This document shows positions 6,436 through 62,097 of a DNA stretch of 64,000 nt, one piece after another. Location of the stretch: NCBI GenBank assembly GCA_964590205.1, contig CAZPVO010000003.1:682-64681 (forward strand). Reading direction: 5' to 3'. The first letter of the stretch is position 1. Every line of letters starts with the position of its first letter. Source of the stretch: an uncultured Candidatus Saccharibacteria bacterium. GTDB lineage: Bacteria > Patescibacteriota > Saccharimonadia > Saccharimonadales > JAGQNJ01. The notes beneath the pieces were generated by a model. It was given only the letters and a program-made list of their open reading frames with translations, ran no database searches and was not told where the DNA came from. The translations under genes were made by a program, and so were the position numbers.

Positions 6436-7971
6436 TTGAATAATCTCAAGAAACTTCAGAACCAGATACAGCAGCAAGTCTTATTAGTTCTGGCTGGAGT
6501 TAATATTTTAGTCGTATTAGCTGTTCTAATACTTATTTATTTCTTGAAATTACACATATTGATCGTGGCAGCACTCGCGCTAATAGCCGTAGCAGCTTCA
6601 TCATTTTTAGCGGCGCGCTGGGCAGCTCGATTTAGCACAGAGCCAATCGAGAAACTTTCTCAGGCGATTGTCCACGTATTGCCGGAGCATCAGGGAAGTC
6701 CAGCACCAGATTTAGACCATCTTAAGGTTGGTCGCGAACTTGTAACGACTATGGCGTTGCAGGTTTATCAATTGGGTAGCTCCTCGCAAACAAAAAGTGC
6801 ACCTAAACCTACCCAAACTGATAACCGTAGTCAGAGCGTGCTTAATAATTTGCCGATGCCAGTAATTGTGCTAGATCAGAACCAAGTTGTAATTTACGCC
6901 AACACTTCAACGGCTGCCTGCTTGCAACTACCAATAAACGAAGTGATCGGCAAGGATATGTACTCATTATTTGATTTGGCGTTTCCAAATGACCAAACCT
7001 TTGACAGTTGGTTAACACAATGTCGTAAAGATAAGCTGACGGCCACCATGAACTGGGAACGCGTACGCCTGCAAACCGCTGGCCAAAAAGTTCGTCACCA
7101 GTTCGATATGGTCGCTTATTACAATAAGAACAACCCGAATAATGTGGAAACAATCATTGGGCTCTTTGATCAAACCGAAAAATATAAACAAGACGACAGT
7201 GGTGTTGGCTTCATTGCGCTGGCAGTGCATGAACTTCGCACGCCACTCACCATGCTGCGCGGCTACATTGAAGTACTTGAGGAAGAATTGCGAGGCAAAC
7301 TGGACCCCGAACTCAACGGTTATTTACAAAAAATGCAGGTAGCTTCTCAACAGTTGGCTAATTTTGTCACCAACATTTTAAATGTCGCACGTGTTGAAGA
7401 AAATCAGCTATTTCTACAACTAAAAGAAGAAAAATGGGATAGCTTGCTACGCGATACATTAAAAGAAATGAGTTTGCGTGCGCAGGTGCACCACAAGCAA
7501 ATCGTACTGCAAGTGCAGCCGGATTTGCCAAATGTAGCGGTTGATCCCATCACTATTACTGAAGTTATCATCAATCTCGTCGACAATGCCATTAAGTACA
7601 GCGGCAGTGGCAATAAAATCATCGTAAAAACTTATATGAATAACGAAGGTTTTGTTGAAACCACCGTGCAGGATTTTGGTGTTGGCATTCCAACCAATGC
7701 TCTCGGCAATCTGTTCGAAAAATTTTATCGCAGTTATCACAGCAAATCACACGTTGGTGGCACCGGCCTAGGCTTATATTTGAGTAAATCAATCGTAGGT
7801 GCGCACAATGGACAGATCTGGGTCAAGTCTAAAGAAGGCGAGGGCAGCACGTTTGGTTTCACGCTCGTACCTTATGCAAAACTTGCCGAAGACCTTAAAA
7901 AACCTGATAATAACGATGTCACCCGTATAGCGCACGGCTGGATTAAAAATCACTCATTCTATAGGAGATAA
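6436..7971 (+). CDS. sensor histidine kinase (TM + PAS-like + HisKA + HATPase)
   Basis: TTG start. H-box AVHELRTPLTMLRGY, N-box LVDNAIKYS and G2 box GGTGLGLYLSKSIV. Confidence 0.88.
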   Translation: MNNLKKLQNQIQQQVLLVLAGVNILVVLAVLILIYFLKLHILIVAALALIAVAASSFLAARWAARFSTEPIEKLSQAIVHVLPEHQGSPAPDLDHLKVGRELVTTMALQVYQLGSSSQTKSAPKPTQTDNRSQSVLNNLPMPVIVLDQNQVVIYANTSTAACLQLPINEVIGKDMYSLFDLAFPNDQTFDSWLTQCRKDKLTATMNWERVRLQTAGQKVRHQFDMVAYYNKNNPNNVETIIGLFDQTEKYKQDDSGVGFIALAVHELRTPLTMLRGYIEVLEEELRGKLDPELNGYLQKMQVASQQLANFVTNILNVARVEENQLFLQLKEEKWDSLLRDTLKEMSLRAQVHHKQIVLQVQPDLPNVAVDPITITEVIINLVDNAIKYSGSGNKIIVKTYMNNEGFVETTVQDFGVGIPTNALGNLFEKFYRSYHSKSHVGGTGLGLYLSKSIVGAHNGQIWVKSKEGEGSTFGFTLVPYAKLAEDLKKPDNNDVTRIAHGWIKNHSFYRR

Positions 7972-7972
7972 T

Positions 7973-8365
7973 GTGGACGCCACTAAATCAACACCACGCT
8001 ACAAAAATATTCTCGTGATTGAAGACGAGCACTTTATTGGCGAGCTTTACATGCGTGCACTCACTAAAGCCGGTTACAACGTTAAGGTAGTTATTGATGG
8101 CAATGAAGGCCTGAAAGAAGCGTCAAGCGACGCCTATGATATTATCCTGCTGGATATAATGGTGCCAAACATGACCGGCATCGACATTTTAAAGAAGATT
8201 CACGAACCCCAAAATAAGCCAATTCACGCCAAAATTATTATCACAACCAACTTGGAACAAAAAGAAGAAACTCGCAAAGAAGTTGAAAAGCAAGCTGATG
8301 GTTATATTGTAAAAGCCAACGTCACACCACGAGAATTGGTTGGCGTACTACAATCGCTCGAATAG
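7973..8365 (+). CDS. single-domain response regulator (receiver only)
   Basis: GTG start 1 nt after the kinase stop. ILVIEDE, DIILLDIMVPNMTGIDIL and YIVKA receiver motifs. There is no output domain. Confidence 0.85.
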   Translation: MDATKSTPRYKNILVIEDEHFIGELYMRALTKAGYNVKVVIDGNEGLKEASSDAYDIILLDIMVPNMTGIDILKKIHEPQNKPIHAKIIITTNLEQKEETRKEVEKQADGYIVKANVTPRELVGVLQSLE

Positions 8366-11990: not shown

Positions 11991-13319
11991 ATGAAAACAT
12001 TAATTATTGTTGGTGGATCTGTTATAGCTTTTATGGGGCTGTTCCTCATTTTATTTGCCGTCATTAGCCGCGAGCACAAAAAGCCCAAAAAAAAGCACGA
12101 CGCAGGTGACATTGATCTGTCCGACAAAAACCTCGAGTCCGACATCATCCTTAACGCCATAGAAGACGGTGTGATTTTAATTGACGCCCATAATAACATC
12201 CGCGTGTTTAATCCAGCAGCATCGCGAATTATTGGCTGGCCAGCCAAAGAAGCCGTTGGGCTCGATTTTAATTTGGTCGTCAAACTGATCGACGAGAAGG
12301 GCAATGCCTACCAACCCGAAGTTAACCCTCTCGTACAGGTGTTTACGCAAAAGACAACCATCCGTGATCACAGCGCTATGTTACTCACTCGCTCAAATAA
12401 AAGAACGGCCGTAAACCTCAGTGTTTCGCCGCTGTTTGACAAGCAGGGCAATGTAAACGGCTCTGTCACCATTTTTCGCGATGTAAGCAAAGAACGGGGC
12501 GAGGAACGTCAACGAGCTGAATTCATTAGCACAGCCAGCCACGAAATGCGCACGCCGGTCGCCGCTATCGAGGGTTATTTAGCGCTGGCCATGAATGAAA
12601 AAGTTACTACCATCGATACTAAAGCGCGTGATTATTTACAAAAAGCTCATCTATCCACACAACATCTCGGACAGCTGTTCCAGGACTTATTAACGTCGGC
12701 CAAAGCAGAAGATGGCCGGCTGTCGAGTCATCCCGTCGTAATCGAAATGGGACAATTCTTGGAAAAACTGGCGGATGATTTACGGTTTACCGCCCAAAAA
12801 AAGAACCTCAGTATGGAATTTGTCATGGGCACCAACAATCAAACCATCGATGCCAGCGGCAGCCAAAGTACCAAGATGGTCAAACCACTCTATTACGTGC
12901 ATGCCGATCCTGATCGACTGCGCGAAGTTATAACTAACTTATTCGACAACGCTGTTAAGTACACCGACACTGGCAAAATTTCGTTGGGTATGACCGGCAA
13001 TAACGAAGTTGTTCAGTTCTATGTTAAAGATACCGGACCTGGCATTCCTCCAGAGGATATTTCGCACCTATTTGAAAAGTTTTACCGTGTAGACAACTCT
13101 GCCACTCGAACCATTGGCGGCACGGGTTTGGGCTTGTTTATTTCTCGCAAAATTGTTGAGCTGTACGGGGGTCGCATTTGGGTCGAAAGCGATCTAGGAA
13201 AGGGCAGTACGTTTTTTGTGAATCTGCCACGTATTACAAATCAAAAGGCATCCGAGCTGAAAGCAACAGAGGCGCAGGCTTCGCCATTATCATCTGATAC
13301 ACCTGTTGCCAGTTCGTGA
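11991..13319 (+). CDS. PAS-domain sensor histidine kinase
   Basis: N-terminal TM helix, PAS-like region, H-box SHEMRTPVAAIEGY, N-box LFDNAVKYT and G2 box GGTGLGLFISRKIVELYGG. Confidence 0.88.
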   Translation: MKTLIIVGGSVIAFMGLFLILFAVISREHKKPKKKHDAGDIDLSDKNLESDIILNAIEDGVILIDAHNNIRVFNPAASRIIGWPAKEAVGLDFNLVVKLIDEKGNAYQPEVNPLVQVFTQKTTIRDHSAMLLTRSNKRTAVNLSVSPLFDKQGNVNGSVTIFRDVSKERGEERQRAEFISTASHEMRTPVAAIEGYLALAMNEKVTTIDTKARDYLQKAHLSTQHLGQLFQDLLTSAKAEDGRLSSHPVVIEMGQFLEKLADDLRFTAQKKNLSMEFVMGTNNQTIDASGSQSTKMVKPLYYVHADPDRLREVITNLFDNAVKYTDTGKISLGMTGNNEVVQFYVKDTGPGIPPEDISHLFEKFYRVDNSATRTIGGTGLGLFISRKIVELYGGRIWVESDLGKGSTFFVNLPRITNQKASELKATEAQASPLSSDTPVASS

Positions 13320-13368: not shown

Positions 13369-14604
13369 ATGGCAAAAGTAATGCTGGTTGAGGACGACAA
13401 TAATCTCCGTGAGATTTATGAAGCTCGTCTGGCCGCAGAAGGTTATGAAATTGTAGCAGCGCAGGACGGCGAGGAGGCGTTAGCTTTGGCCGTTAAGGAG
13501 CGTCCTGATCTTATTATTGCCGATATTATGATGCCGAAGGTCAGCGGTTTTGATATGCTCGACATTTTGCGCAGCACGCCAGAAACCAAACACACCAAGA
13601 TTATTATGATGACTGCACTCAGCCAGGCCGAAGATAAAGCTCGAGCCGAAAAACTTGGTGCTGATCGCTATTTGGTTAAATCACAAGTGACCCTAGAAGA
13701 CGTTGTGAAAGTCGCCAGTGAAATGCTGAATGATCAGAGTGGCGGAAGCTCAAACGGACCTGCCGATGATTCGCCAGTGACCGATCCAGTCAGCGATGCG
13801 CCAACTATTGGTTCAAGCAACGACTCAGGCGCCGCACCAGCAGACGATAAACCTGCTGATGAACCAGTCACACCACCGCCAGCTGACGATCCTGCTGCTG
13901 CTTCCACGGCAACGCAGCAAAGTGATACGACCGCCACTGAGGAAGCCGATGTGACAAAGCAAATTGACGACTTTATAAGCAAGAACCCAACACTGTCGAC
14001 TGCTGCCACTCCACCACCTGAAACTGCTCCTGCTGAGCCCGCAGCCGCTACCGACGAGCCAGGCTTCAAAGAAGAAACAATCAGTGGTGCACCGGCCGTT
14101 AACGACGCCTCAAAATCTAAAACAATTCCAGTTACTGTTCATAGCGATGAGCCTGAAAAAAGCGATGCCGACAAAACTATGGCGAATGCTGTTGATACGC
14201 TCGCAAATGCCGGAGGTCCAACTCAGCCACCTGAAAATGCCGAAAACACATTGCCAAACCCAGCCACCGATGACGACGGCAAACCTAAACCAGCCGAAAA
14301 AAAGGGTGGTGAACGTGTTATCCAACCACTTACGGATCCGACGCAGTCTGCCGGCCCAAGTCTTGATGAATTACTAGCCCGTGAGGAAAGCAACAATGGC
14401 ATTGCGCCACCGCCAGTTAATGCTGTAATCGCCCCAGGTGGTGCTGTTACGCATAACAACACGCCGATTGATCCAGCCGCTCCAGCACAACCAGCTTTTA
14501 CCGATAGCAGCGCTGCACCAGGTGTTGTACAGGCTCCAGTCGATCCTGGCATAAACACACCGCCAACCACTCCTCCAGCTAACGCTAACAACATTAGTCT
14601 CTAG
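13369..14604 (+). CDS. response regulator receiver with ~280-aa low-complexity P/A/T/D-rich tail
   Basis: A canonical receiver (MLVEDD, DLIIADIMMPKVSGFDML, YLVKS) covers about the first 120 aa. The remainder is compositionally biased with no recognisable output domain. Confidence 0.8.
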   Translation: MAKVMLVEDDNNLREIYEARLAAEGYEIVAAQDGEEALALAVKERPDLIIADIMMPKVSGFDMLDILRSTPETKHTKIIMMTALSQAEDKARAEKLGADRYLVKSQVTLEDVVKVASEMLNDQSGGSSNGPADDSPVTDPVSDAPTIGSSNDSGAAPADDKPADEPVTPPPADDPAAASTATQQSDTTATEEADVTKQIDDFISKNPTLSTAATPPPETAPAEPAAATDEPGFKEETISGAPAVNDASKSKTIPVTVHSDEPEKSDADKTMANAVDTLANAGGPTQPPENAENTLPNPATDDDGKPKPAEKKGGERVIQPLTDPTQSAGPSLDELLAREESNNGIAPPPVNAVIAPGGAVTHNNTPIDPAAPAQPAFTDSSAAPGVVQAPVDPGINTPPTTPPANANNISL

Positions 14605-49501: not shown

Positions 49502-50851
49502 CTAGCTAACCTTTTTTACTAAATCTTCAATCTTGATGCGGTCTTGTTTGGTGGTGTCGCGGTCTCGGAGCGTGACGGTGCCATCTTCGAGAGTATCGAA
49601 GTCGATGGTTACGCAATACGGCGTACCGATTTCGTCCTGGCGACGATAACGCTTACCGATGTTACCGTTGTCATCCCACATAACATTGCCGAGTTCTTTT
49701 TTGAGAGTTCTGTAGACTTCTTCGGCTTTTTTAACTAGCTCTGGTTTGTTCTTGAGCAGTGGCGATACTGCTACCCGATACGGCGCCAAGTGCGATGCAA
49801 GCTTGAGGACCACGCGTGTTTCGCTGTTCACTTCTTCCTCATGATAGGCATTCACCAAAACAGCCATGAGCATACGTCCAACTCCGACTGAACTTTCGAT
49901 AACATACGGAACAAACCGTTCACCTGTTGATTCGTCAAAATAGCTGAGATCTTTTTTGCTGACACGCTGATGGTTGGAAAGATCGTAATCGGTTCGGTTG
50001 TGTGTTCCCCACAGCTCTTTAAAACCTTGCGGAAAGTTAAAGTAAATATCATGCGCCGCCGCTGCATAGTGAGCTCGTTCTTTTTCGTCGTGCTCGTGCC
50101 ACTGCAGGTTTTTCTCATCAATGCCTAGTCGCTTAGTTAGGAAATTCCAGGCAAACTCACGCCATGTTTCATACACTTCTTTTTGATCGGTATCACGAAT
50201 AAAATACTGCATCTCCATCTGTTCCAGCTCGCGAACTCGAAAGATAAAATCACGAGGGCTAATTTCGTTTCGGAAGGCTTTTCCTACTTGGGCAACGCCA
50301 AAAGGCAGTTTGGCGCGCATGGTTTCACGAACGTTTTCGTAGTTGGTAAAAATCGAACCTGCCGTTTCTGGTCGTAAATACGCCACACTTGAATCATCTT
50401 CGATTGGGCCAACCCACGTTTTCATCATCATGTTGTAAGTTCGCGGTTCAGTCAGGGCTTTTTTGCCACAGGTTGGACAAGCTTTATCTTTGAGTAGTTC
50501 CGTGAGTTCTTTTAGATCGGTCGAATCGGTGCCAGCTAAATGATCGGCTCGGTGCCGCGCCCCACAGTTTTTACAGTCAACAAGTGGATCGGTAAAACCG
50601 GCTACGTGACCACTGGCTTCCCAGAGCTTCGGATTTTGAATAATAGCCCCGTCGACTCCAAAAATGTTGTCGTGCTCGTGCACCATTGCGTCCCACCACT
50701 CTTTTTTCAGATTGTTTACCAGCTCCACACCAAGTGGGCCATAGTCGTAAAAGCCAGCCAAGCCACCATAAATTTCACTAGCCTGAAATACAAAACCGCG
50801 GCGTTTGGCAAGACTTACAATATCGTCTAAACTAACTTTTTTGTCGCTCAT
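49502..50851 (-). CDS. glyQS: glycyl-tRNA synthetase (dimeric GlyQS type)
   Basis: FVFQASEIYGGLAGFYDYGPLGVEL, class II motifs and an anticodon-binding C-terminus. Start taken at MSDKKVSLDDIV (50851), because the upstream part of the ORF looks non-coding. Confidence 0.92.
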   Translation of the reverse strand: MSDKKVSLDDIVSLAKRRGFVFQASEIYGGLAGFYDYGPLGVELVNNLKKEWWDAMVHEHDNIFGVDGAIIQNPKLWEASGHVAGFTDPLVDCKNCGARHRADHLAGTDSTDLKELTELLKDKACPTCGKKALTEPRTYNMMMKTWVGPIEDDSSVAYLRPETAGSIFTNYENVRETMRAKLPFGVAQVGKAFRNEISPRDFIFRVRELEQMEMQYFIRDTDQKEVYETWREFAWNFLTKRLGIDEKNLQWHEHDEKERAHYAAAAHDIYFNFPQGFKELWGTHNRTDYDLSNHQRVSKKDLSYFDESTGERFVPYVIESSVGVGRMLMAVLVNAYHEEEVNSETRVVLKLASHLAPYRVAVSPLLKNKPELVKKAEEVYRTLKKELGNVMWDDNGNIGKRYRRQDEIGTPYCVTIDFDTLEDGTVTLRDRDTTKQDRIKIEDLVKKVS

Positions 50852-50973
50852 CTTACGCATAAGTATAACAGATCTGAGGCGAATATAATGAGCCTGGTAA
50901 ATTGCAAAGCAATTTAGGTGACACGCAGTGGCACTAGCTGGTTCGACCTTGCAACGCAAGGTCATAACAGATG

Positions 50974-51663
50974 CTATCCGTGCGCGAACTGACTAAACAT
51001 CGTTTTAATTGTTGGGTTGATCTGGTCCGCTATTTTTTCAATTGATTCAATGTGCATTAATTTTTCCGGCGTCTGTGACAAAAATAACCTGAGGAGTTTA
51101 ATGTGGTTTGAGTTAAATTTTCCCTGATCATTCACCCCAAAAGCCATGGCGTCAAAATCGAACAAATAGCGTTGCCCTTCTTCCAATTTTTTGTTTTGTG
51201 TGTCGGTTATTAAGTTTGGTTCATGCCCTAAAAGTTGCAACAGTCGAAAACGAAACCATGATTCAATAACCACAGGTTGATTATTTGGCTCATTCAAACT
51301 TTGCAAGCCTTCAAGCAAAAGTTCAAAATATTCAGCTTCGCAACTATCCTGTGTTGATTTATCTATCATTTTTAACAACTCATAGGCAGTTTGCGTTCGG
51401 CTAATTTCTGCGACAATGTTGCCAAAATGTGAGACTAAGCGCGTTGAAATGAGCGTACTAATATCTCGTTTGCCGGGAATATAGGTAATCGTACTAACAC
51501 TAAATAGTTCGATGCCGCCAGCCAGTTTACTTTTGATTTTGCGTACACCTTTGGCCATCAGGCGTAATTTACCTTGATCTGGGGTCAGAACTGTTAAAAT
51601 CCTATCAGCTTCGGCAAAATTCAGTCGATTGAGCACTATTGCGGTTGTAACAACTTGTTTCAT
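50974..51663 (-). CDS. recO: DNA repair protein RecO
   Basis: OB-fold N-terminus TTAIVLNRLNFAEADRILTVLTPDQGKLRLMAKGVRK. Confidence 0.85.
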   Translation of the reverse strand: MKQVVTTAIVLNRLNFAEADRILTVLTPDQGKLRLMAKGVRKIKSKLAGGIELFSVSTITYIPGKRDISTLISTRLVSHFGNIVAEISRTQTAYELLKMIDKSTQDSCEAEYFELLLEGLQSLNEPNNQPVVIESWFRFRLLQLLGHEPNLITDTQNKKLEEGQRYLFDFDAMAFGVNDQGKFNSNHIKLLRLFLSQTPEKLMHIESIEKIADQINPTIKTMFSQFAHG

Positions 51664-52049
51664 GATGGTGTCTTTGCTGAGAGCAAATCCTGCACAACTT
51701 TGGTTAGCTCGGCCAGTGTAGTGTGCGGCTTATAGAGATATTTGATGATCCCAAGCTGCTGTTTGAGCATATTACTCAAGTGTAAGTCATCTTCAGGAAT
51801 AACCGTGTGAATTATGACGGGCAGCTGCCGCAAATCACTGTGTGAGCGAAGCTCGTATAAAAACTCCACACCATTATGTTTAGCAAGCTGCAATTCCAGC
51901 ACAATCAGTTCGGGGTGCTCACGATCAATAAAAGTAATCGCCCCTTGGGCTGAGGAAATCGTTCCAATCTTAATAGACGCTGCTTTTAAAGCCGCTGTGT
52001 AGGTTTTAGCCAGCAATCGGTCTGGCTCAATCAAAAGCACCTGTGTCAT
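51660..52049 (-). CDS. atypical receiver domain protein (Glu at phospho-acceptor position)
   Basis: The receiver fold is conserved (VLLIEPD, IIHT, LYKP), but the acceptor site reads ELIVLELQL instead of D. The stop overlaps the recO start by 4 nt. Confidence 0.7.
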   Translation of the reverse strand: MTQVLLIEPDRLLAKTYTAALKAASIKIGTISSAQGAITFIDREHPELIVLELQLAKHNGVEFLYELRSHSDLRQLPVIIHTVIPEDDLHLSNMLKQQLGIIKYLYKPHTTLAELTKVVQDLLSAKTPS

Positions 52050-52053
52050 ATCT

Positions 52054-52773
52054 TTATAGTAGCGCGAGTTGTTGGCTTGGCAAAAGTATCGCAGCTAAAC
52101 CTGCTTTACCACGAGTATGAGTAACCTTTAGCTGGTATGTCATGGCGTCAAATAGTGAACGGGCCACCAGCACTCCTGCACCACTGGCATGCGTCATATC
52201 CGCAAGCGGCTGACGTGCAAAACCATATAAATCTTTAGCCTGTTGCAGCAATTGGCTACTTAAATCCAGATTTGTTGTTTGAATACCTGCCAGAACTCCT
52301 TGCCGACTTCCCTGAGCGATCAGAATAATATTCGTCTTTTTTGGCTGGCTATCAACTGAGCTAATAAAACTGTAGCCCAGGCTTGTTAACGCCGCTTGCA
52401 GCGCCTGACGATGCGCCATAACCAGTCCCTTCTTCCCTTTTATGGACAGATTAATTTGGCAATCATAGAGCTTTGCAATTTTGTGCAAGTACTGTGCGGT
52501 ATCGTACATGGTTGCGCTGAGAGAAACAGGTTCAAGCTCGAGTTTTTGTTGACCAAGCATCGCTTGGGTACTGAGCACGTAGCTATCAAGTAATCTGAGC
52601 GCGGTGTCAGCAAGCACCGCTGTCCGATCAATTTCCCAGGTGTTGCCGGTTACCTGAGCAAGTTCGGCGCTGCGAGCTATTTGCATCAAGGGTAGCTTTA
52701 ATTCTTCAGCCAATGTTCGTAGTAATCGACTTTGCGACTGGTCTTCTCCACCCAGTACTACACCGCTATTCAC
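52054..52773 (-). CDS. degenerate cytoplasmic histidine-kinase-like protein
   Basis: GTG start. The DHp-like segment reads LAEELKLPLMQIARSAEL, with Glu where the H-box His is expected. The N-box position reads LTSLGYSFI (no Asn), and a G2-like ASGAGVLVARSL is present. Confidence 0.55.
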   Translation of the reverse strand: MNSGVVLGGEDQSQSRLLRTLAEELKLPLMQIARSAELAQVTGNTWEIDRTAVLADTALRLLDSYVLSTQAMLGQQKLELEPVSLSATMYDTAQYLHKIAKLYDCQINLSIKGKKGLVMAHRQALQAALTSLGYSFISSVDSQPKKTNIILIAQGSRQGVLAGIQTTNLDLSSQLLQQAKDLYGFARQPLADMTHASGAGVLVARSLFDAMTYQLKVTHTRGKAGLAAILLPSQQLALL

Positions 52774-52825
52774 GTTTCAATTACCCTCACTTAATCAGCT
52801 ATCAATTATAGCACTGTTACGGGTG

Positions 52826-53491
52826 TTATGGTGTGAAACTAAAGTTGGCGAGAATATTGTTATTAAAGTCGTCTTTGTACTGATTTGCCTCTGTTGTAAG
52901 TTTGATGGTTTTATCACGAAGAGGTAACAATACTACAACGCCTTGCTTGCCTGACTCCACTTCGCCCTCAATCCTCACACCGATAACATTTGGGACATTA
53001 ACTGGCTTATACGGAACAGCTGTGGCCTTGCCGGTTTTTACTGGTGCGTCGTAGCTCTTAATCTCATCCGCAAAACCACGATTAACTACTTCCAGATGCA
53101 ATGCATAATTTTGTTGCGGGCTTATGCCTGGCACAAAGTTCGGATGAAAGTGACCGTCGAGCGCTGCAGTGCCATTGCCGCTTTCATCAACATACGCACT
53201 CCATGTTTTTGGATAGTGAATTTGCACACTTCCATATGCACTTGGTCCTTGATACTGTTTGAGCGGCTGTTTTTCGCGCTCAATAAACTCATCATCTTTT
53301 TGAGTAGCCGTATCCTTTTTGGCAACATCAACAGCGGTAGCAATTTTTTGGTCAGTGTTGTTTTTATAATCTTGTCGGCTACTGTAGGACCAGAACGCAA
53401 AACCAAGAGTCAGCAAAAAAAAGACGACAGCAAAAATCAACGGTATAAGAAGGACATTCATGCCCTGCTCATTTGAGCGGAGTTTACTCAT
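52826..53491 (-). CDS. hypothetical membrane-anchored extracytoplasmic protein
   Basis: An N-terminal TM helix (VLLIPLIFAVVFFLLTLGFAFW) is followed by a beta-rich domain. Confidence 0.45.
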   Translation of the reverse strand: MSKLRSNEQGMNVLLIPLIFAVVFFLLTLGFAFWSYSSRQDYKNNTDQKIATAVDVAKKDTATQKDDEFIEREKQPLKQYQGPSAYGSVQIHYPKTWSAYVDESGNGTAALDGHFHPNFVPGISPQQNYALHLEVVNRGFADEIKSYDAPVKTGKATAVPYKPVNVPNVIGVRIEGEVESGKQGVVVLLPLRDKTIKLTTEANQYKDDFNNNILANFSFTP

Positions 53492-53520: not shown

Positions 53521-54171
53521 TTAGGCAATAGTTGTGCCAGGACCTTCCTCAATTACTGCCGCAGGCCTAAAGCGCAGTGAACCGTAATTATCGTTTTGTT
53601 GAAATTGTACCCTTTGAATTTTGCCTCTGTCAGCACGATATCGACAGACAGGCGCCCACCCTGGTTCCGGCATTGTAGTCTCTCCAGTAAGCCAAGTGTC
53701 AGTATAATTATTTGCGTCAGGAATTTCTTCGCCACGCAACCGGGCATCTGAAATCATTCCGCGGTAAACATCGTATGTCATGCCGACTCGTGTATCTATC
53801 TCGCGTCCATCGACACTAACTACAAACTTATCTCGATTACGTTGATCAAATATATTTTTCCAGCTCCGCTCTTTTTCGTGATAATCTCTGCCAGGTCCAA
53901 GATCAAGACCTTTTGACGCTGCGTAAACAACTGTTAAAGTATCGCCACCCACATCGTAATTAATGGTCCGCACAATGCGGAAAAATTCCGCACTCGCCCC
54001 ATGATCCCTAAACTTTTCTGCCATAGCTTTTGCTAACTCTACTGCTTTTTCTGCTTGTTCACGATCTCGAAAATGAAACGTCTCACCCGGATTACTTATT
54101 ATCTCTCCGCTTTTCTCTGGATCATGTAAATCACTTGTGCTATCACTCATATTTGGCATATAAATCTCCAA
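53521..54171 (-). CDS. hypothetical protein
   Basis: ORF with protein-like composition; the start may be MPNMSDS at 54159. No motif recognised. Confidence 0.45.
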   Translation of the reverse strand: MEIYMPNMSDSTSDLHDPEKSGEIISNPGETFHFRDREQAEKAVELAKAMAEKFRDHGASAEFFRIVRTINYDVGGDTLTVVYAASKGLDLGPGRDYHEKERSWKNIFDQRNRDKFVVSVDGREIDTRVGMTYDVYRGMISDARLRGEEIPDANNYTDTWLTGETTMPEPGWAPVCRYRADRGKIQRVQFQQNDNYGSLRFRPAAVIEEGPGTTIA

Positions 54172-54202: not shown

Positions 54203-54718
54203 CTACTTCGCCATCTTATTATATTCGTACAAGAATATTCCTTTTTTGGTTTTCATTGGCTTCTTATTTGGAATCGTAAATACAAAACTCACCAGCTTAA
54301 TTGGTTTTTTAAAATCGCTTTGGATTTTTTTGTCTAAACGCTCCATGTAAGGTTGCAGCAAAAAAACGAAAATCCCATCGGCTGGCGGTAATGTCCCCCG
54401 CCAATAATTACCCCATTTAATTTTGATGTGCTTGCGATATTTGCGAGTCAAAATCCAGGAGTAAATGACTAGCAACGGATTAAGTTCATAGCCAATACCG
54501 TTTATGCCGCGCTTGGCGGCTTCTATCAGTACGCGACCATCGCCACTGCCTAGCTCCAGTAAAGTCTGCCCAGGCTTTAGGTCAATCAAATCAACAGCTT
54601 TGTACATCTCAGGTTTAAGAATTGGCAAAAACGGTGCACCAAAAGCAATGACAAAGCAAAAACAAACAAACACCACTGCACAAACAATCACCGTGGTATT
54701 CCAGGCAATTTGGAGCAT
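54203..54718 (-). CDS. class I SAM-dependent methyltransferase with N-terminal TM helix
   Basis: Motif I in LLELGSGDGRVLIEAAKRG. Confidence 0.65.
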   Translation of the reverse strand: MLQIAWNTTVIVCAVVFVCFCFVIAFGAPFLPILKPEMYKAVDLIDLKPGQTLLELGSGDGRVLIEAAKRGINGIGYELNPLLVIYSWILTRKYRKHIKIKWGNYWRGTLPPADGIFVFLLQPYMERLDKKIQSDFKKPIKLVSFVFTIPNKKPMKTKKGIFLYEYNKMAK

Positions 54719-60029: not shown

Positions 60030-60464
60030 CTAATTTGCGCTAAGATGGTGCTTAATACGTTCTACGACATCTGCAATCACCACTTGTGATTTGACCAAGT
60101 AATCATCGGCCCCGAGTTGGGTGGCCTTTTCTTTATCAGTGTCTTGGCTGAGTGCCGTAAGCATCACAACTTTTACATTGGCCGTTTCAGGAGTGTTGCG
60201 TAAGATATCAAGTACGTCAAAACCGCTCACTTTAGGCATCATAACATCGAGCAAAATGAGGCTTGGCTTGAATTCAATAGCTGCCGCGAGTGCATCTTCA
60301 CCATTTGGCACACGACGAACTGTAAAGCCTTCGGCCTCGAGACGAGTTTGGTATACATTTGCCAATCCGTCGTCATCTTCGACGAGTAGAATCTTTTTTC
60401 CCTTGAGGTTTTGATTTTGTGGATCCATGTTGCTCATGCTAGAGGATTTAAGCTCGTTTTGCAA
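60030..60464 (-). CDS. single-domain response regulator (paralog of the 13369 receiver)
   Basis: KKILLVEDDD, LILLDVMMPKVSGFDVLDILRNTPET and YLVKS motifs. The ORF begins with TTG; an ATG at 60437 is an alternative start. Confidence 0.85.
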   Translation of the reverse strand: MQNELKSSSMSNMDPQNQNLKGKKILLVEDDDGLANVYQTRLEAEGFTVRRVPNGEDALAAAIEFKPSLILLDVMMPKVSGFDVLDILRNTPETANVKVVMLTALSQDTDKEKATQLGADDYLVKSQVVIADVVERIKHHLSAN

Positions 60465-60480: not shown

Positions 60481-62097
60481 CTATCTCTTTGCTAGTGTGG
60501 CAATAAAGCCATTAAATAATGGATGCGGTCGATTCGGTCGACTGGTAAATTCAGGGTGGAATTGGCTGGCAACAAAGAATGGGTGATCAATCGCTTCAAT
60601 AACTTCAACTAATTTGCCATCAGGCGAGGTTCCAACCGCTTTTATGCCCCACGATTCGTATTGCTCACGGTATGCATTGCTACATTCACAGCGGTGACGA
60701 TGACGCTCAACAATGTCCGTAGCACCATATAATTGCGCAGCTTTACTGTCCTTAGCCAGTACACATGGGTAATTACCGAGGCGCATGGTACCACCAGTTT
60801 GCTGCTTGCCGGCTTGGCCGTCCATAATATCAATGACTTTGGTGCTACTTTCTGGGTCAAGCTCCAGAGTGGTAGCTTTTTTAATGCCTGCATTGCGAGC
60901 AGCTGCGATAACTGCCATCTGTAAGCCGAGGCAAAGGCCAAGATATGGGATGTTATGCTTCAGCGCATATTGCGCAGCAATTATCTTGCCCTCGAGTCCG
61001 CGCGTACCAAAACCACCTGGGACCACCAGACCATCAACATCTTTGATAGTTTTCTCAATATCTTTGTCTTTTTTGATTCTCTCGGCGTCGATCCACTTAA
61101 TTTTTACTTTGCAATCATTCCACATTCCAGCTGCGTAGAGTGCTTCAAAAACCGACATATAGGTATCGGTGTTGTCCATGTATTTTGCAACCACACCAAC
61201 AGTCACCTTTTTCTTCTGAGTAGCTACAGCCCTTTTAACCACACCTCGCCACTCTTTAAGGTCTGGCTTCTTGGCTTTCACGTTTAATCGCTCGCAAATA
61301 ACATCGGCAATGCCGGTATCCTCAAGTGTCAGCGGCACCTCATAAATACTGGCCGCGTTTGGTAATAATGCAATCGAGCCTTTATCGACACCAGAGAAGA
61401 GACTTAGTTTTTCTTTCACGTTATTTAATGGTGGTTTCTCGCTGCGTGCCACCAAAATGTCAGGGCTAATCCCCAGCCCACGTAAATCTCGAACAGAGTT
61501 TTGAGCTGGCTTTGTCTTAGTTTCCTGGCTCGCACCCAAAAATGGCAGGTAAACCACGTGTACATACAAGCAATTTTCTAGGCCAACTCTGATACCCAGC
61601 TCACGAATTGCCTCAAGAAAACTCAGACTTTCGTAGTCACCAACTGTTCCCCCAATTTCGACAATGTGTACGTCGTAGCCGTCGGCTGCATCCTGGATAA
61701 ACTTTTGGATAGCCATAGTGAAATGCGGAATAATTTGGACGTCATCGCCTTCGTATTTGCCAGCTCGCTCATCAGCAATCACTTTTTGCAATACTCGGCC
61801 ACTCATCAGTGAACTTTTGCCGTTTAATTCTTGATCCAAAAAGCGCTCGTAATGGCCAAGGTCAAGATCTGTTTCGGCACCATCATAGGTAACAAAACAC
61901 TCACCATGTTCGCGTGGATTTAAAAGGCCCGCATCAACATTAAGATACGGGTCGCACTTTTGAATATTAACTTTGAGTTTTCGGGCTTTTAAGAGGTTTC
62001 CAATAGAGGCGGCGGTGATTCCTTTTCCGAGGCCAGATAACACACCCCCGGTTACAAACACATATTTAGTTGGCTGCTTGGCCACTTCGCTCGCCAT
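60481..62097 (-). CDS. pyrG: CTP synthase
   Basis: YVFVTGGVLSGLGKGI synthetase N-terminus and glutaminase YLGLCLGLQ...HRHRCE(Y-type). Confidence 0.95.
   Translation of the reverse strand: MASEVAKQPTKYVFVTGGVLSGLGKGITAASIGNLLKARKLKVNIQKCDPYLNVDAGLLNPREHGECFVTYDGAETDLDLGHYERFLDQELNGKSSLMSGRVLQKVIADERAGKYEGDDVQIIPHFTMAIQKFIQDAADGYDVHIVEIGGTVGDYESLSFLEAIRELGIRVGLENCLYVHVVYLPFLGASQETKTKPAQNSVRDLRGLGISPDILVARSEKPPLNNVKEKLSLFSGVDKGSIALLPNAASIYEVPLTLEDTGIADVICERLNVKAKKPDLKEWRGVVKRAVATQKKKVTVGVVAKYMDNTDTYMSVFEALYAAGMWNDCKVKIKWIDAERIKKDKDIEKTIKDVDGLVVPGGFGTRGLEGKIIAAQYALKHNIPYLGLCLGLQMAVIAAARNAGIKKATTLELDPESSTKVIDIMDGQAGKQQTGGTMRLGNYPCVLAKDSKAAQLYGATDIVERHRHRCECSNAYREQYESWGIKAVGTSPDGKLVEVIEAIDHPFFVASQFHPEFTSRPNRPHPLFNGFIATLAKR

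Follow-up and report, generated by a model that had tools for sequence, protein, structure and literature searches.

The window analysed here is a stretch of 64,000 nucleotides from an uncultured Candidatus Saccharibacteria bacterium (contig CAZPVO010000003.1, positions 682 to 64,681), and the subject is a pair of adjacent genes within it, which encode a histidine-kinase-like protein (pHK) and a receiver (REC) and are followed by recO. The region from 49.5 to 57.1 kb of the window was found to be a single minus-strand gene array. In the direction of transcription, it encodes an LPG-synthase-like membrane protein, XseA, XseB, a small methyltransferase (MT171), an open reading frame (ORF) of 216 amino acid residues, a membrane-anchored protein (TM221), pHK, REC, RecO and a glycyl-tRNA synthetase (GlyS). 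The ORF coordinates given in a preliminary description, which had been made from the letters of the sequence, were confirmed (Table 1). That description had claimed that both proteins of the pair have lost the phospho-acceptor residue, and both acceptor positions were indeed found to be occupied by glutamate.

The kinase-like protein and the receiver

When pHK was searched as a single sequence, no Pfam family was matched at E ≤ 1, and the search of the PDB was also without a match. In Pfam searches with 44 relatives, HisKA was touched by five and HATPase_c by none, and detection of the homology needed a family profile of the 44 homologues. With this profile, CpxA (E 1.4e-4), DivL (E 1.5e-4) and ZraS were matched in the PDB, and an hhalign comparison with EnvZ, CpxA and PhoQ of E. 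coli gave an alignment of 219 columns (E 7.7e-6). The AlphaFold2 model of pHK (pLDDT 84.7, pTM 0.83) contains two helices (residues 8-42 and 45-72), which form a dimerization and histidine phosphotransfer (DHp) hairpin (approximately residues 8-72), followed by an alpha/beta domain resembling the catalytic (CA) domain (approximately residues 81-239). When the model was used as a Foldseek query, the DHp-CA portion of HK853 (E 3.9e-10, TM-score 0.70), DivL (TM-score 0.73), ChpT (E 6e-8) and RetS were matched; the matches to HK853, DivL, CusS and WalK span E 1e-8 to 4e-10. The family profile, the hhalign alignment and the predicted fold agree with the earlier assignment by eye of this ORF to the DHp and catalytic domains of a histidine kinase. 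The predicted fold is that of a histidine kinase, a DHp four-helix-bundle hairpin with a Bergerat-fold CA-like core.

The catalytic residues of this fold were located by alignment. Glu23 of pHK (within AEELKLPL) was paired with the H-box His in all alignments (His248 of CpxA, His243 of EnvZ and His277 of PhoQ), and no profile alignment placed a His there. Glu occupies this position in 79 of 81 species, and no conserved His was found at any position of the DHp region in the conservation census of the family. The N-box Asn corresponds to Ser135 (HMMER) or Ser138 (hhalign), with Asn in neither family column. The G1 box (DDGPG in EnvZ) is replaced by TTNLD, so that the G1 glycines are lost, and an Asp is found at the G1 position in about half of the family. 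The G2 box (GTGLGL) reads GAGVLV; within the family Gly198 is kept in 66/81, Ala199 in 79/81 and Gly200 in 80/81 sequences, and the third Gly is replaced by Phe or Leu. The substitution in the H-box, the missing N-box Asn and the G2-like remnant had all been noticed beforehand. Two motifs were specific to the pHK family, namely LLDSY (61-65) and ARQPL (186-190), the latter in the lid.

As Glu23 sits just 22 residues from the N-terminus, pHK is without a membrane or sensor domain. At the sequence level, pHK qualifies as a pseudo-histidine kinase in the sense of Collins and Childers, given that the His, the N-box and the G1 box are absent, and the public annotation of the protein as a "HAMP domain-containing histidine kinase" is misleading. 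The family comprised 286 clusters at 50% identity (E ≤ 1e-30); the best 150 clusters listed were all of a single architecture, with lengths of 168-256 residues, mostly 210-256. At one locus (L067), the H-box position of pHK is occupied by Asp (LADELKLPL).

REC was recognized directly by the Pfam Response_reg profile (PF00072), with 48.9 bits against a cut-off of 30.2 (E 8e-13) and coverage of profile positions 1-110 of 111. Alignment with CheY and PhoB placed Glu52 at the acceptor Asp (D57 of CheY, D53 of PhoB), Thr82 at the conserved Thr, Tyr104 at the aromatic switch position and Lys107-Pro108 at the conserved Lys-Pro. The earlier reading of the fold markers was therefore right for Thr82, Lys107 and the Glu at the acceptor position, but its "EPD" marker hides a further loss: these residues are Glu8 (the first acidic position, DD1), Pro9 (the second, DD2) and Asp10, and the second metal-binding Asp is also gone. 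Two of the five catalytic residues are thus missing from REC. Across the species compared, Glu52 (81/82), Glu8 (82/82), Pro9 (81/82), Ser or Thr at position 82 (82/82), Lys107 (81/82), Pro108 (79/82), Tyr104 (72/82) and His58 (82/82) were conserved, as was Asp10. Helix alpha3 (GVEFLYELRS) showed a mean top-residue frequency of 0.93 versus 0.60 overall, and together with the active-site loops it forms the most conserved part of REC; the means for alpha1, alpha4 and alpha5 were 0.42-0.55. The best sequence match of REC among solved structures was the pseudo-receiver of FrzS (E 6e-7), and RR468 was also matched in the PDB. As judged by its sequence, REC is a pseudo-receiver (aspartate-less receiver) by the definition of a 2025 review (PMC12632262), being a receiver by profile in which catalytic residues are missing.

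The sole exception at the acceptor position of REC is an Asp at locus L017 (LIVLDVQL). This genome differs from the one that carries Asp in the pHK H-box, so in neither case does the pair look like one that has regained its function. As internal controls, the window contains two canonical histidine kinases in which the H, N, G1 and G2 boxes are all intact, as well as three receivers that keep the acceptor Asp, two of them single-domain; therefore, the loss of the acceptors is specific to the pHK-REC pair.

Conservation, transcription units and transposon data

Relatives of the locus were found by a DNA-pattern scan with the REC alignment, given that the pHK alignment contained no stretch conserved enough for the purpose. 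The REC pattern was matched in 297 species-representative genomes, and 80 loci, nearly all labelled Saccharibacteria, Saccharimonadales or unclassified Patescibacteria, were kept for the census. The order xseA-xseB-MT171-TM221-pHK-REC-recO was constant across the 80 loci, as far as the fetched flank reaches. The synteny check thus came out in favour of the pair, which was universally adjacent and tightly packed with recO. Orthologues that are full-length, of the same architecture and 40-70% identical were present in at least 297 species genomes. Because both Glu residues are fixed in approximately 98% of the 80 species-level Saccharibacteria genomes, the comparison points to purifying selection on the substituted sites, not to decay. 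The loops that surround the two Glu residues also hardly vary across Saccharibacteria.

The junctions described earlier were read in the sequence: the pHK stop codon TAA is followed by AGAT and the ATG of REC (a 4-nt gap), and the REC stop codon and the recO start codon share an ATGA overlap. The 4-nt overlap of REC and recO was found in 64 of 79 species (81%), versus 11-33% at the other tight junctions of the cluster, and the pHK-REC junction was ≤10 nt in 85% of species. The gap between TM221 and pHK has a median of 70 nt, and that between recO and glyS is variable (median 195 nt, up to ~3 kb). For the promoter census, a -10 element (TATA[AC]T) was sought within 60 nt 5' of each gene. Such an element was present 5' of pHK in 68 of 75 species (35 of them in the extended form with TGn; shuffle expectation 3.6) and 5' of glyS in 56 of 70 species; it was found 5' of TM221 in 1/66, of REC in 5/81 and of recO in 0/79. 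A Shine-Dalgarno-like motif lay ≤25 nt from the pHK start in 54 of 70 species. In the window, the candidate extended -10 element of pHK (Table 1) was not listed by a consensus promoter scan, because no -35 match was found.

Given the -10 elements 5' of pHK and of glyS, the transcription units appear to be a preceding unit that includes xseAB-MT171-TM221, then pHK-REC-recO, and then glyS, which is separately promoted. TM221 probably ends the preceding xseAB unit, since no promoter element was found 5' of it. The proposal that the pair belongs to a recO-glyQS transcription unit did not hold: the synthetase is a single-chain GlyS whose gene has its own -10 element, and the unit appears to be pHK-REC-recO. 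The third gene was identified as recO by TIGR00613 (81.2 bits, cut-off 48.7), RecO_N (67 bits) and RecO_C (27.6 bits).

The same gene order is found in Southlakia epibionticum, where SEML1_0241 to SEML1_0249 follow the arrangement of the window locus in Tables S1 and S2 of Wang et al. 2023 (Cell; PMC10633639), and where the gene lengths and both 4-nt overlaps also agree with the window. Those tables give transposon sequencing (Tn-seq) calls at T0, T1 and T2 as not essential (NE), growth defect (GD) or essential (ES). For SEML1_0246, annotated as a histidine kinase, the calls were GD, GD and ES, with insertions falling from 32 in the input to 8, 3 and 1; for SEML1_0247, annotated as a response regulator, they were NE, GD and ES, with insertions falling from 10 to 2, 1 and 0. 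By comparison, recO (SEML1_0248) was called NE, NE and GD, with 38 insertions in the input and 25, 36 and 29 thereafter, and SEML1_0242 to SEML1_0244 (xseAB and the methyltransferase gene, the counterpart of MT171) were NE at all three time points. Among the canonical two-component genes, SEML1_0317 was called NE, NE and GD, and SEML1_0318 and SEML1_0238 were NE throughout (PMC10633639). The counterparts by synteny of pHK and REC are needed for growth of S. epibionticum. Their phenotype does not look like a polar effect on recO or glyS, because recO, which lies downstream of the pair, tolerates insertions.

Interpretation of the pair

By its sequence, the pHK-REC pair is predicted to be incapable of canonical His-Asp phosphotransfer. 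We consider it rather probable that pHK and REC belong together as kinase and receiver, that they have abandoned phosphotransfer and that selection has maintained them as a phosphorylation-independent protein complex. The preliminary description had spoken of a phosphorylation-independent protein-protein switch. Independence of phosphorylation is the natural reading of two acceptors that are both replaced and fixed, but the word "switch" is without support, as two states were not indicated by any result.

Proteins of these kinds are known already from other organisms: pseudo-histidine kinases (DivL), ATP-blind DHp-CA proteins (ChpT) and Glu pseudo-receivers (plant pseudo-response regulators, PRRs, and Rim15). 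DivL of Caulobacter crescentus, like pHK, has a DHp-CA core in which the acceptor His is replaced, and it works by binding a receiver, not by phosphorylating it. In DivL, however, the replacing residue is Tyr instead of the Glu of pHK, and the protein is large, anchored in the membrane and equipped with several PAS domains. DivK, to which it binds, is a true receiver that can be phosphorylated, and DivL and DivK do not form an operonic pseudo-pair. The Caulobacter histidine phosphotransferase ChpT resembles pHK in being a soluble protein of ~210-250 residues that consists of a DHp hairpin and a CA-like domain only, the latter no longer binding ATP, but ChpT keeps its His and shuttles phosphate, whereas pHK has Glu and a DHp region without a conserved His. 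On the receiver side, FrzS of Myxococcus xanthus also lacks the acceptor Asp and binds protein through its alpha3-beta4-alpha4 surface, and alpha3 is the most conserved helix of REC; in FrzS the acceptor position is occupied by Ala and a long coiled-coil tail is present, whereas REC consists of a receiver alone and carries Glu. The same exchange of Asp for Glu is seen in plant PRRs and fungal Rim15, which are described as working independently of phosphorylation, but these proteins come from eukaryotes, contain several domains and have no pseudo-kinase partner to match. HK853 and RR468 of Thermotoga maritima are operonic and include a single-domain receiver, as in pHK-REC, and HK853 is the best structural template for pHK; in this system, however, the His, Asp, N, G1 and G2 determinants are intact and the kinase has a membrane sensor domain.

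Pseudo-receivers and pseudo-kinases are common, and the 2025 review (PMC12632262) calls the mechanisms a mystery. It gives Glu as the commonest pseudo-receiver substitution at the D position and considers a phosphomimetic effect via T and K possible; it also reports that 0.9% of HisKA domains are without His and that 18 of 20 characterised atypical bacterial regulators are orphans. In the literature searched, we found no account of a cognate pair, encoded in one operon, that is degenerate on both sides with matched invariant Glu residues, occurs lineage-wide and is required for growth. The earlier statement that this is not a described arrangement needs qualification, given that the syntenic SEML1_0246 and SEML1_0247 are annotated with Tn-seq phenotypes; the lost acceptors are not remarked upon in PMC10633639 or PMC12632262. 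The main text of PMC10633639 and a 2024 perspective make no mention of the genes of the SEML1_0246/0247 region.

A structural model for the proposed complex can be outlined by analogy. pHK would dimerise via its DHp hairpin, and each REC would dock on the dimer in the way that RR468 docks on HK853. REC may be kept in an active-like, phosphomimetic state by Glu52 together with Thr82, Tyr104 and Lys107, which are retained. Glu23 of pHK would reach the pocket of REC (Glu8, Asp10, Glu52 and Lys107), possibly via a bridging cation, giving a "frozen phosphotransfer" interface. The complex would then act on a third protein, with the extremely conserved alpha3 face of REC, the ARQPL motif in the pHK lid, or both as the contact surface; since neither protein has an output domain, the output must run through third parties. 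RecO is the leading candidate client because the translational coupling of REC and recO is conserved, although we would put its chances somewhat below even. In one version, the pair would restrain RecO; this would account for an essential pair beside a dispensable recO. Other candidate clients would be genuine two-component proteins, in the manner of DivL, or the pair may have a role at the envelope together with TM221.

A bolder form of the proposal is a lineage-specific "phosphate-free two-component system", in which an obligate pHK2-REC2 assembly, with paired and perhaps metal-bridged Glu residues replacing the phospho-His/Asp relay, would govern a step that is essential to the epibiotic life cycle; we regard this as possible but doubtful. 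Such a system might gate RecO and thereby decide whether imported single-stranded DNA is recombined or salvaged, or it might exert DivL/DivK-style control of the cell cycle and differentiation. If so, the surface on which kinase and receiver dock would have been converted into a lasting regulatory scaffold, which might respond to a metal or ligand.

A number of observations weigh against a phosphorylation-independent complex, or at least against parts of it. The complex is something that we infer by analogy with canonical pairs. Mutual information with average product correction over 81 paired pHK-REC sequences (effective number 71) placed 3 of the top 50 pairs at the expected interface versus 4.2 expected, a result that reflects clade-marker noise and is underpowered, and alpha1 of REC, the canonical kinase-docking helix, is moderately conserved (0.55). 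Because about half of the family keeps the G1 Asp and the G-x-G of G2 is kept, residual nucleotide binding by pHK is conceivable. The orthology of SEML1_0246/0247 is deduced from gene order, lengths and the 4-nt overlaps, and Tn5 polarity within a three-gene operon complicates the reading of the Tn-seq data. As for RecO, in other bacteria recO is co-transcribed with unrelated essential genes, as in era-recO; therefore, membership in the operon is a weak argument for a link to RecO.

The pair might instead modulate true phosphosignalling in the manner of DivL, with pHK sensing the phosphorylated form of a genuine single-domain receiver, or with REC competing for or inhibiting a genuine kinase. 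DivL, with Tyr for His, is among the best matches of pHK in both sequence and fold, possible partners are at hand in the intact kinases and single-domain receivers of the window, and PMC12632262 discusses pseudo-receivers that act on other two-component partners, e.g., CmrT and ShkA. However, the canonical genes of S. epibionticum are mostly non-essential whereas the pair becomes essential, so the key role of the pair cannot simply run through them, and the strict operonic pairing with both Glu residues fixed argues that pHK and REC are partners of each other. We therefore judge this wiring to be unlikely.

Cryptic catalysis, in which phosphate or another group would be moved via non-canonical residues (for example with Asp10 of REC as the acceptor and a genuine kinase or a small molecule as the donor), or in which pHK would have a nucleotide-dependent activity, appears very improbable. 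REC does retain Glu8, Asp10, Ser/Thr82 and Lys107 in a pocket that is its most conserved part, and the glycines of G2 and the frequent Asp at G1 are as noted above; against this, the DHp region is without a conserved His, the N-box Asn is missing in either alignment together with the G1 glycines, and DD2 is Pro in 81 of 82 sequences. That the genes are a functionless relic of a two-component system beside recO, or mis-called ORFs, might be read from the missing Pfam match of the window pHK, but this is already contradicted by the full-length orthologues with invariant substituted residues, by the conserved junctions and promoter and by the growth requirement in the Tn-seq data, and its probability is negligible.

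The pair is found throughout a major uncultivated lineage, and the syntenic genes are required for growth in its sole genetically manipulable member. A matched operonic pseudo-pair with invariant Glu residues would be a tractable system in which to study how a kinase-receiver interface can signal without phosphorylation, and it could lead to an essential, still unassigned function of Saccharibacteria.

Neighbouring genes and other two-component genes

Table 1. Positions in the window of the genes and sequence elements discussed in the text
Feature	Position	Strand	Remarks
glyS	49502-50860	-	single-chain dimeric glycyl-tRNA synthetase (GlyRS); PRK04173 and TIGR00389 profile matches
recO	50974-51663	-	third in the operon; start codon ATG shared in part with the stop of REC
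REC	51660-52049	-	single-domain pseudo-receiver, 129 residues
pHK	52054-52773	-	soluble pseudo-histidine kinase, 239 residues; GTG start
Shine-Dalgarno GAGGG	52784-52788	-	10 nt 5' of the pHK GTG start
Candidate extended -10 element TGcTATAAT	52805-52813	-	in the 52-nt gap 5' of pHK; read by eye
TM221	52826-53491	-	N-terminal transmembrane helix, long stalk helix, extracytoplasmic PsbP/Mog1p-like domain
216-aa ORF	53521-54171	-	between MT171 and TM221
MT171	54203-54718	-	small membrane-anchored S-adenosylmethionine (SAM) methyltransferase
First intact histidine kinase	6436-7971	+	HELRTPL, NLVDNAIKY, DFGVGI and GTGLGL
First intact single-domain receiver	7973-8365	+	follows the first kinase
Second intact histidine kinase	11991-13319	+	
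Response regulator	13369-14604	+	follows the second kinase; intact receiver
Second intact single-domain receiver	60030-60464	-	third intact receiver of the window
CTP-synthase-like gene	60481-62097		

The upstream membrane-anchored protein of the preliminary description was recovered as TM221, a protein of 221 residues with an N-terminal transmembrane helix and an extracytoplasmic domain of PsbP/Mog1p/DcrB-like fold. TM221 is better conserved than the pHK-REC pair (52-72% identity over the best 120 of 857 relatives). Its cytoplasmic tail is of approximately 10 residues, and conserved positions reach into this tail, with Met1 and Gly10 invariant and Asn12 nearly so. The syntenic counterpart in S. 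epibionticum, SEML1_0245 (hypothetical protein, Mog1p/PsbP-like), is Patescibacteria-enriched and class I essential, with ES calls at all three time points and insertions falling from 18 in the input to 1, 0 and 0 (PMC10633639). A split sensor kinase formed by TM221 and pHK was considered and appears unlikely, given that pHK has no membrane segment, TM221 exposes only this short tail to the cytoplasm and a promoter element lies between the two genes.

For the 216-aa ORF, no match was found in Pfam, NCBIfam or PADLOC and no relative in the 84 related loci searched. An insertion-sized gap was present at its position in several loci (e.g., L020, L034 and L056), which suggests that the cluster, rigid elsewhere, takes up variable insertions at this point. 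MT171 matched the methyltransferase region of the PADLOC model mad2 (E 2e-9), probably through generic methyltransferase similarity. A defence system was considered for the locus and rejected, given that in the PADLOC scan no defence system was matched by pHK, TM221 or the 216-aa ORF, while the matches of REC, recO and the methyltransferase were weak and at the domain level only.

The glyS ORF was matched by PRK04173 (626.7 bits) and TIGR00389 (509.9 bits) as one chain, with no separate glyQ and glyS subunits. Its true start is probably at 50860 or 50851 (MSDKK...), not at the mechanical ORF start at 50965. The extended -10 element TGtTATACT at 50862-50870 abuts the ATG at 50860 and lies ~10 nt 5' of the ATG at 50851, so the glyS mRNA may be leaderless or nearly so.

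Among the intact two-component genes of the window, the first kinase and the single-domain receiver that follows it resemble SEML1_0318 and SEML1_0317 of S. epibionticum. The response regulator that follows the second kinase has an unusual architecture, in which the intact receiver is joined to a Pro/Ala/Thr-rich low-complexity tail of ~290 residues with no recognisable output domain. The third intact receiver, a single-domain protein encoded directly 3' of the CTP-synthase-like gene, has a receiver core that closely resembles that of this regulator.

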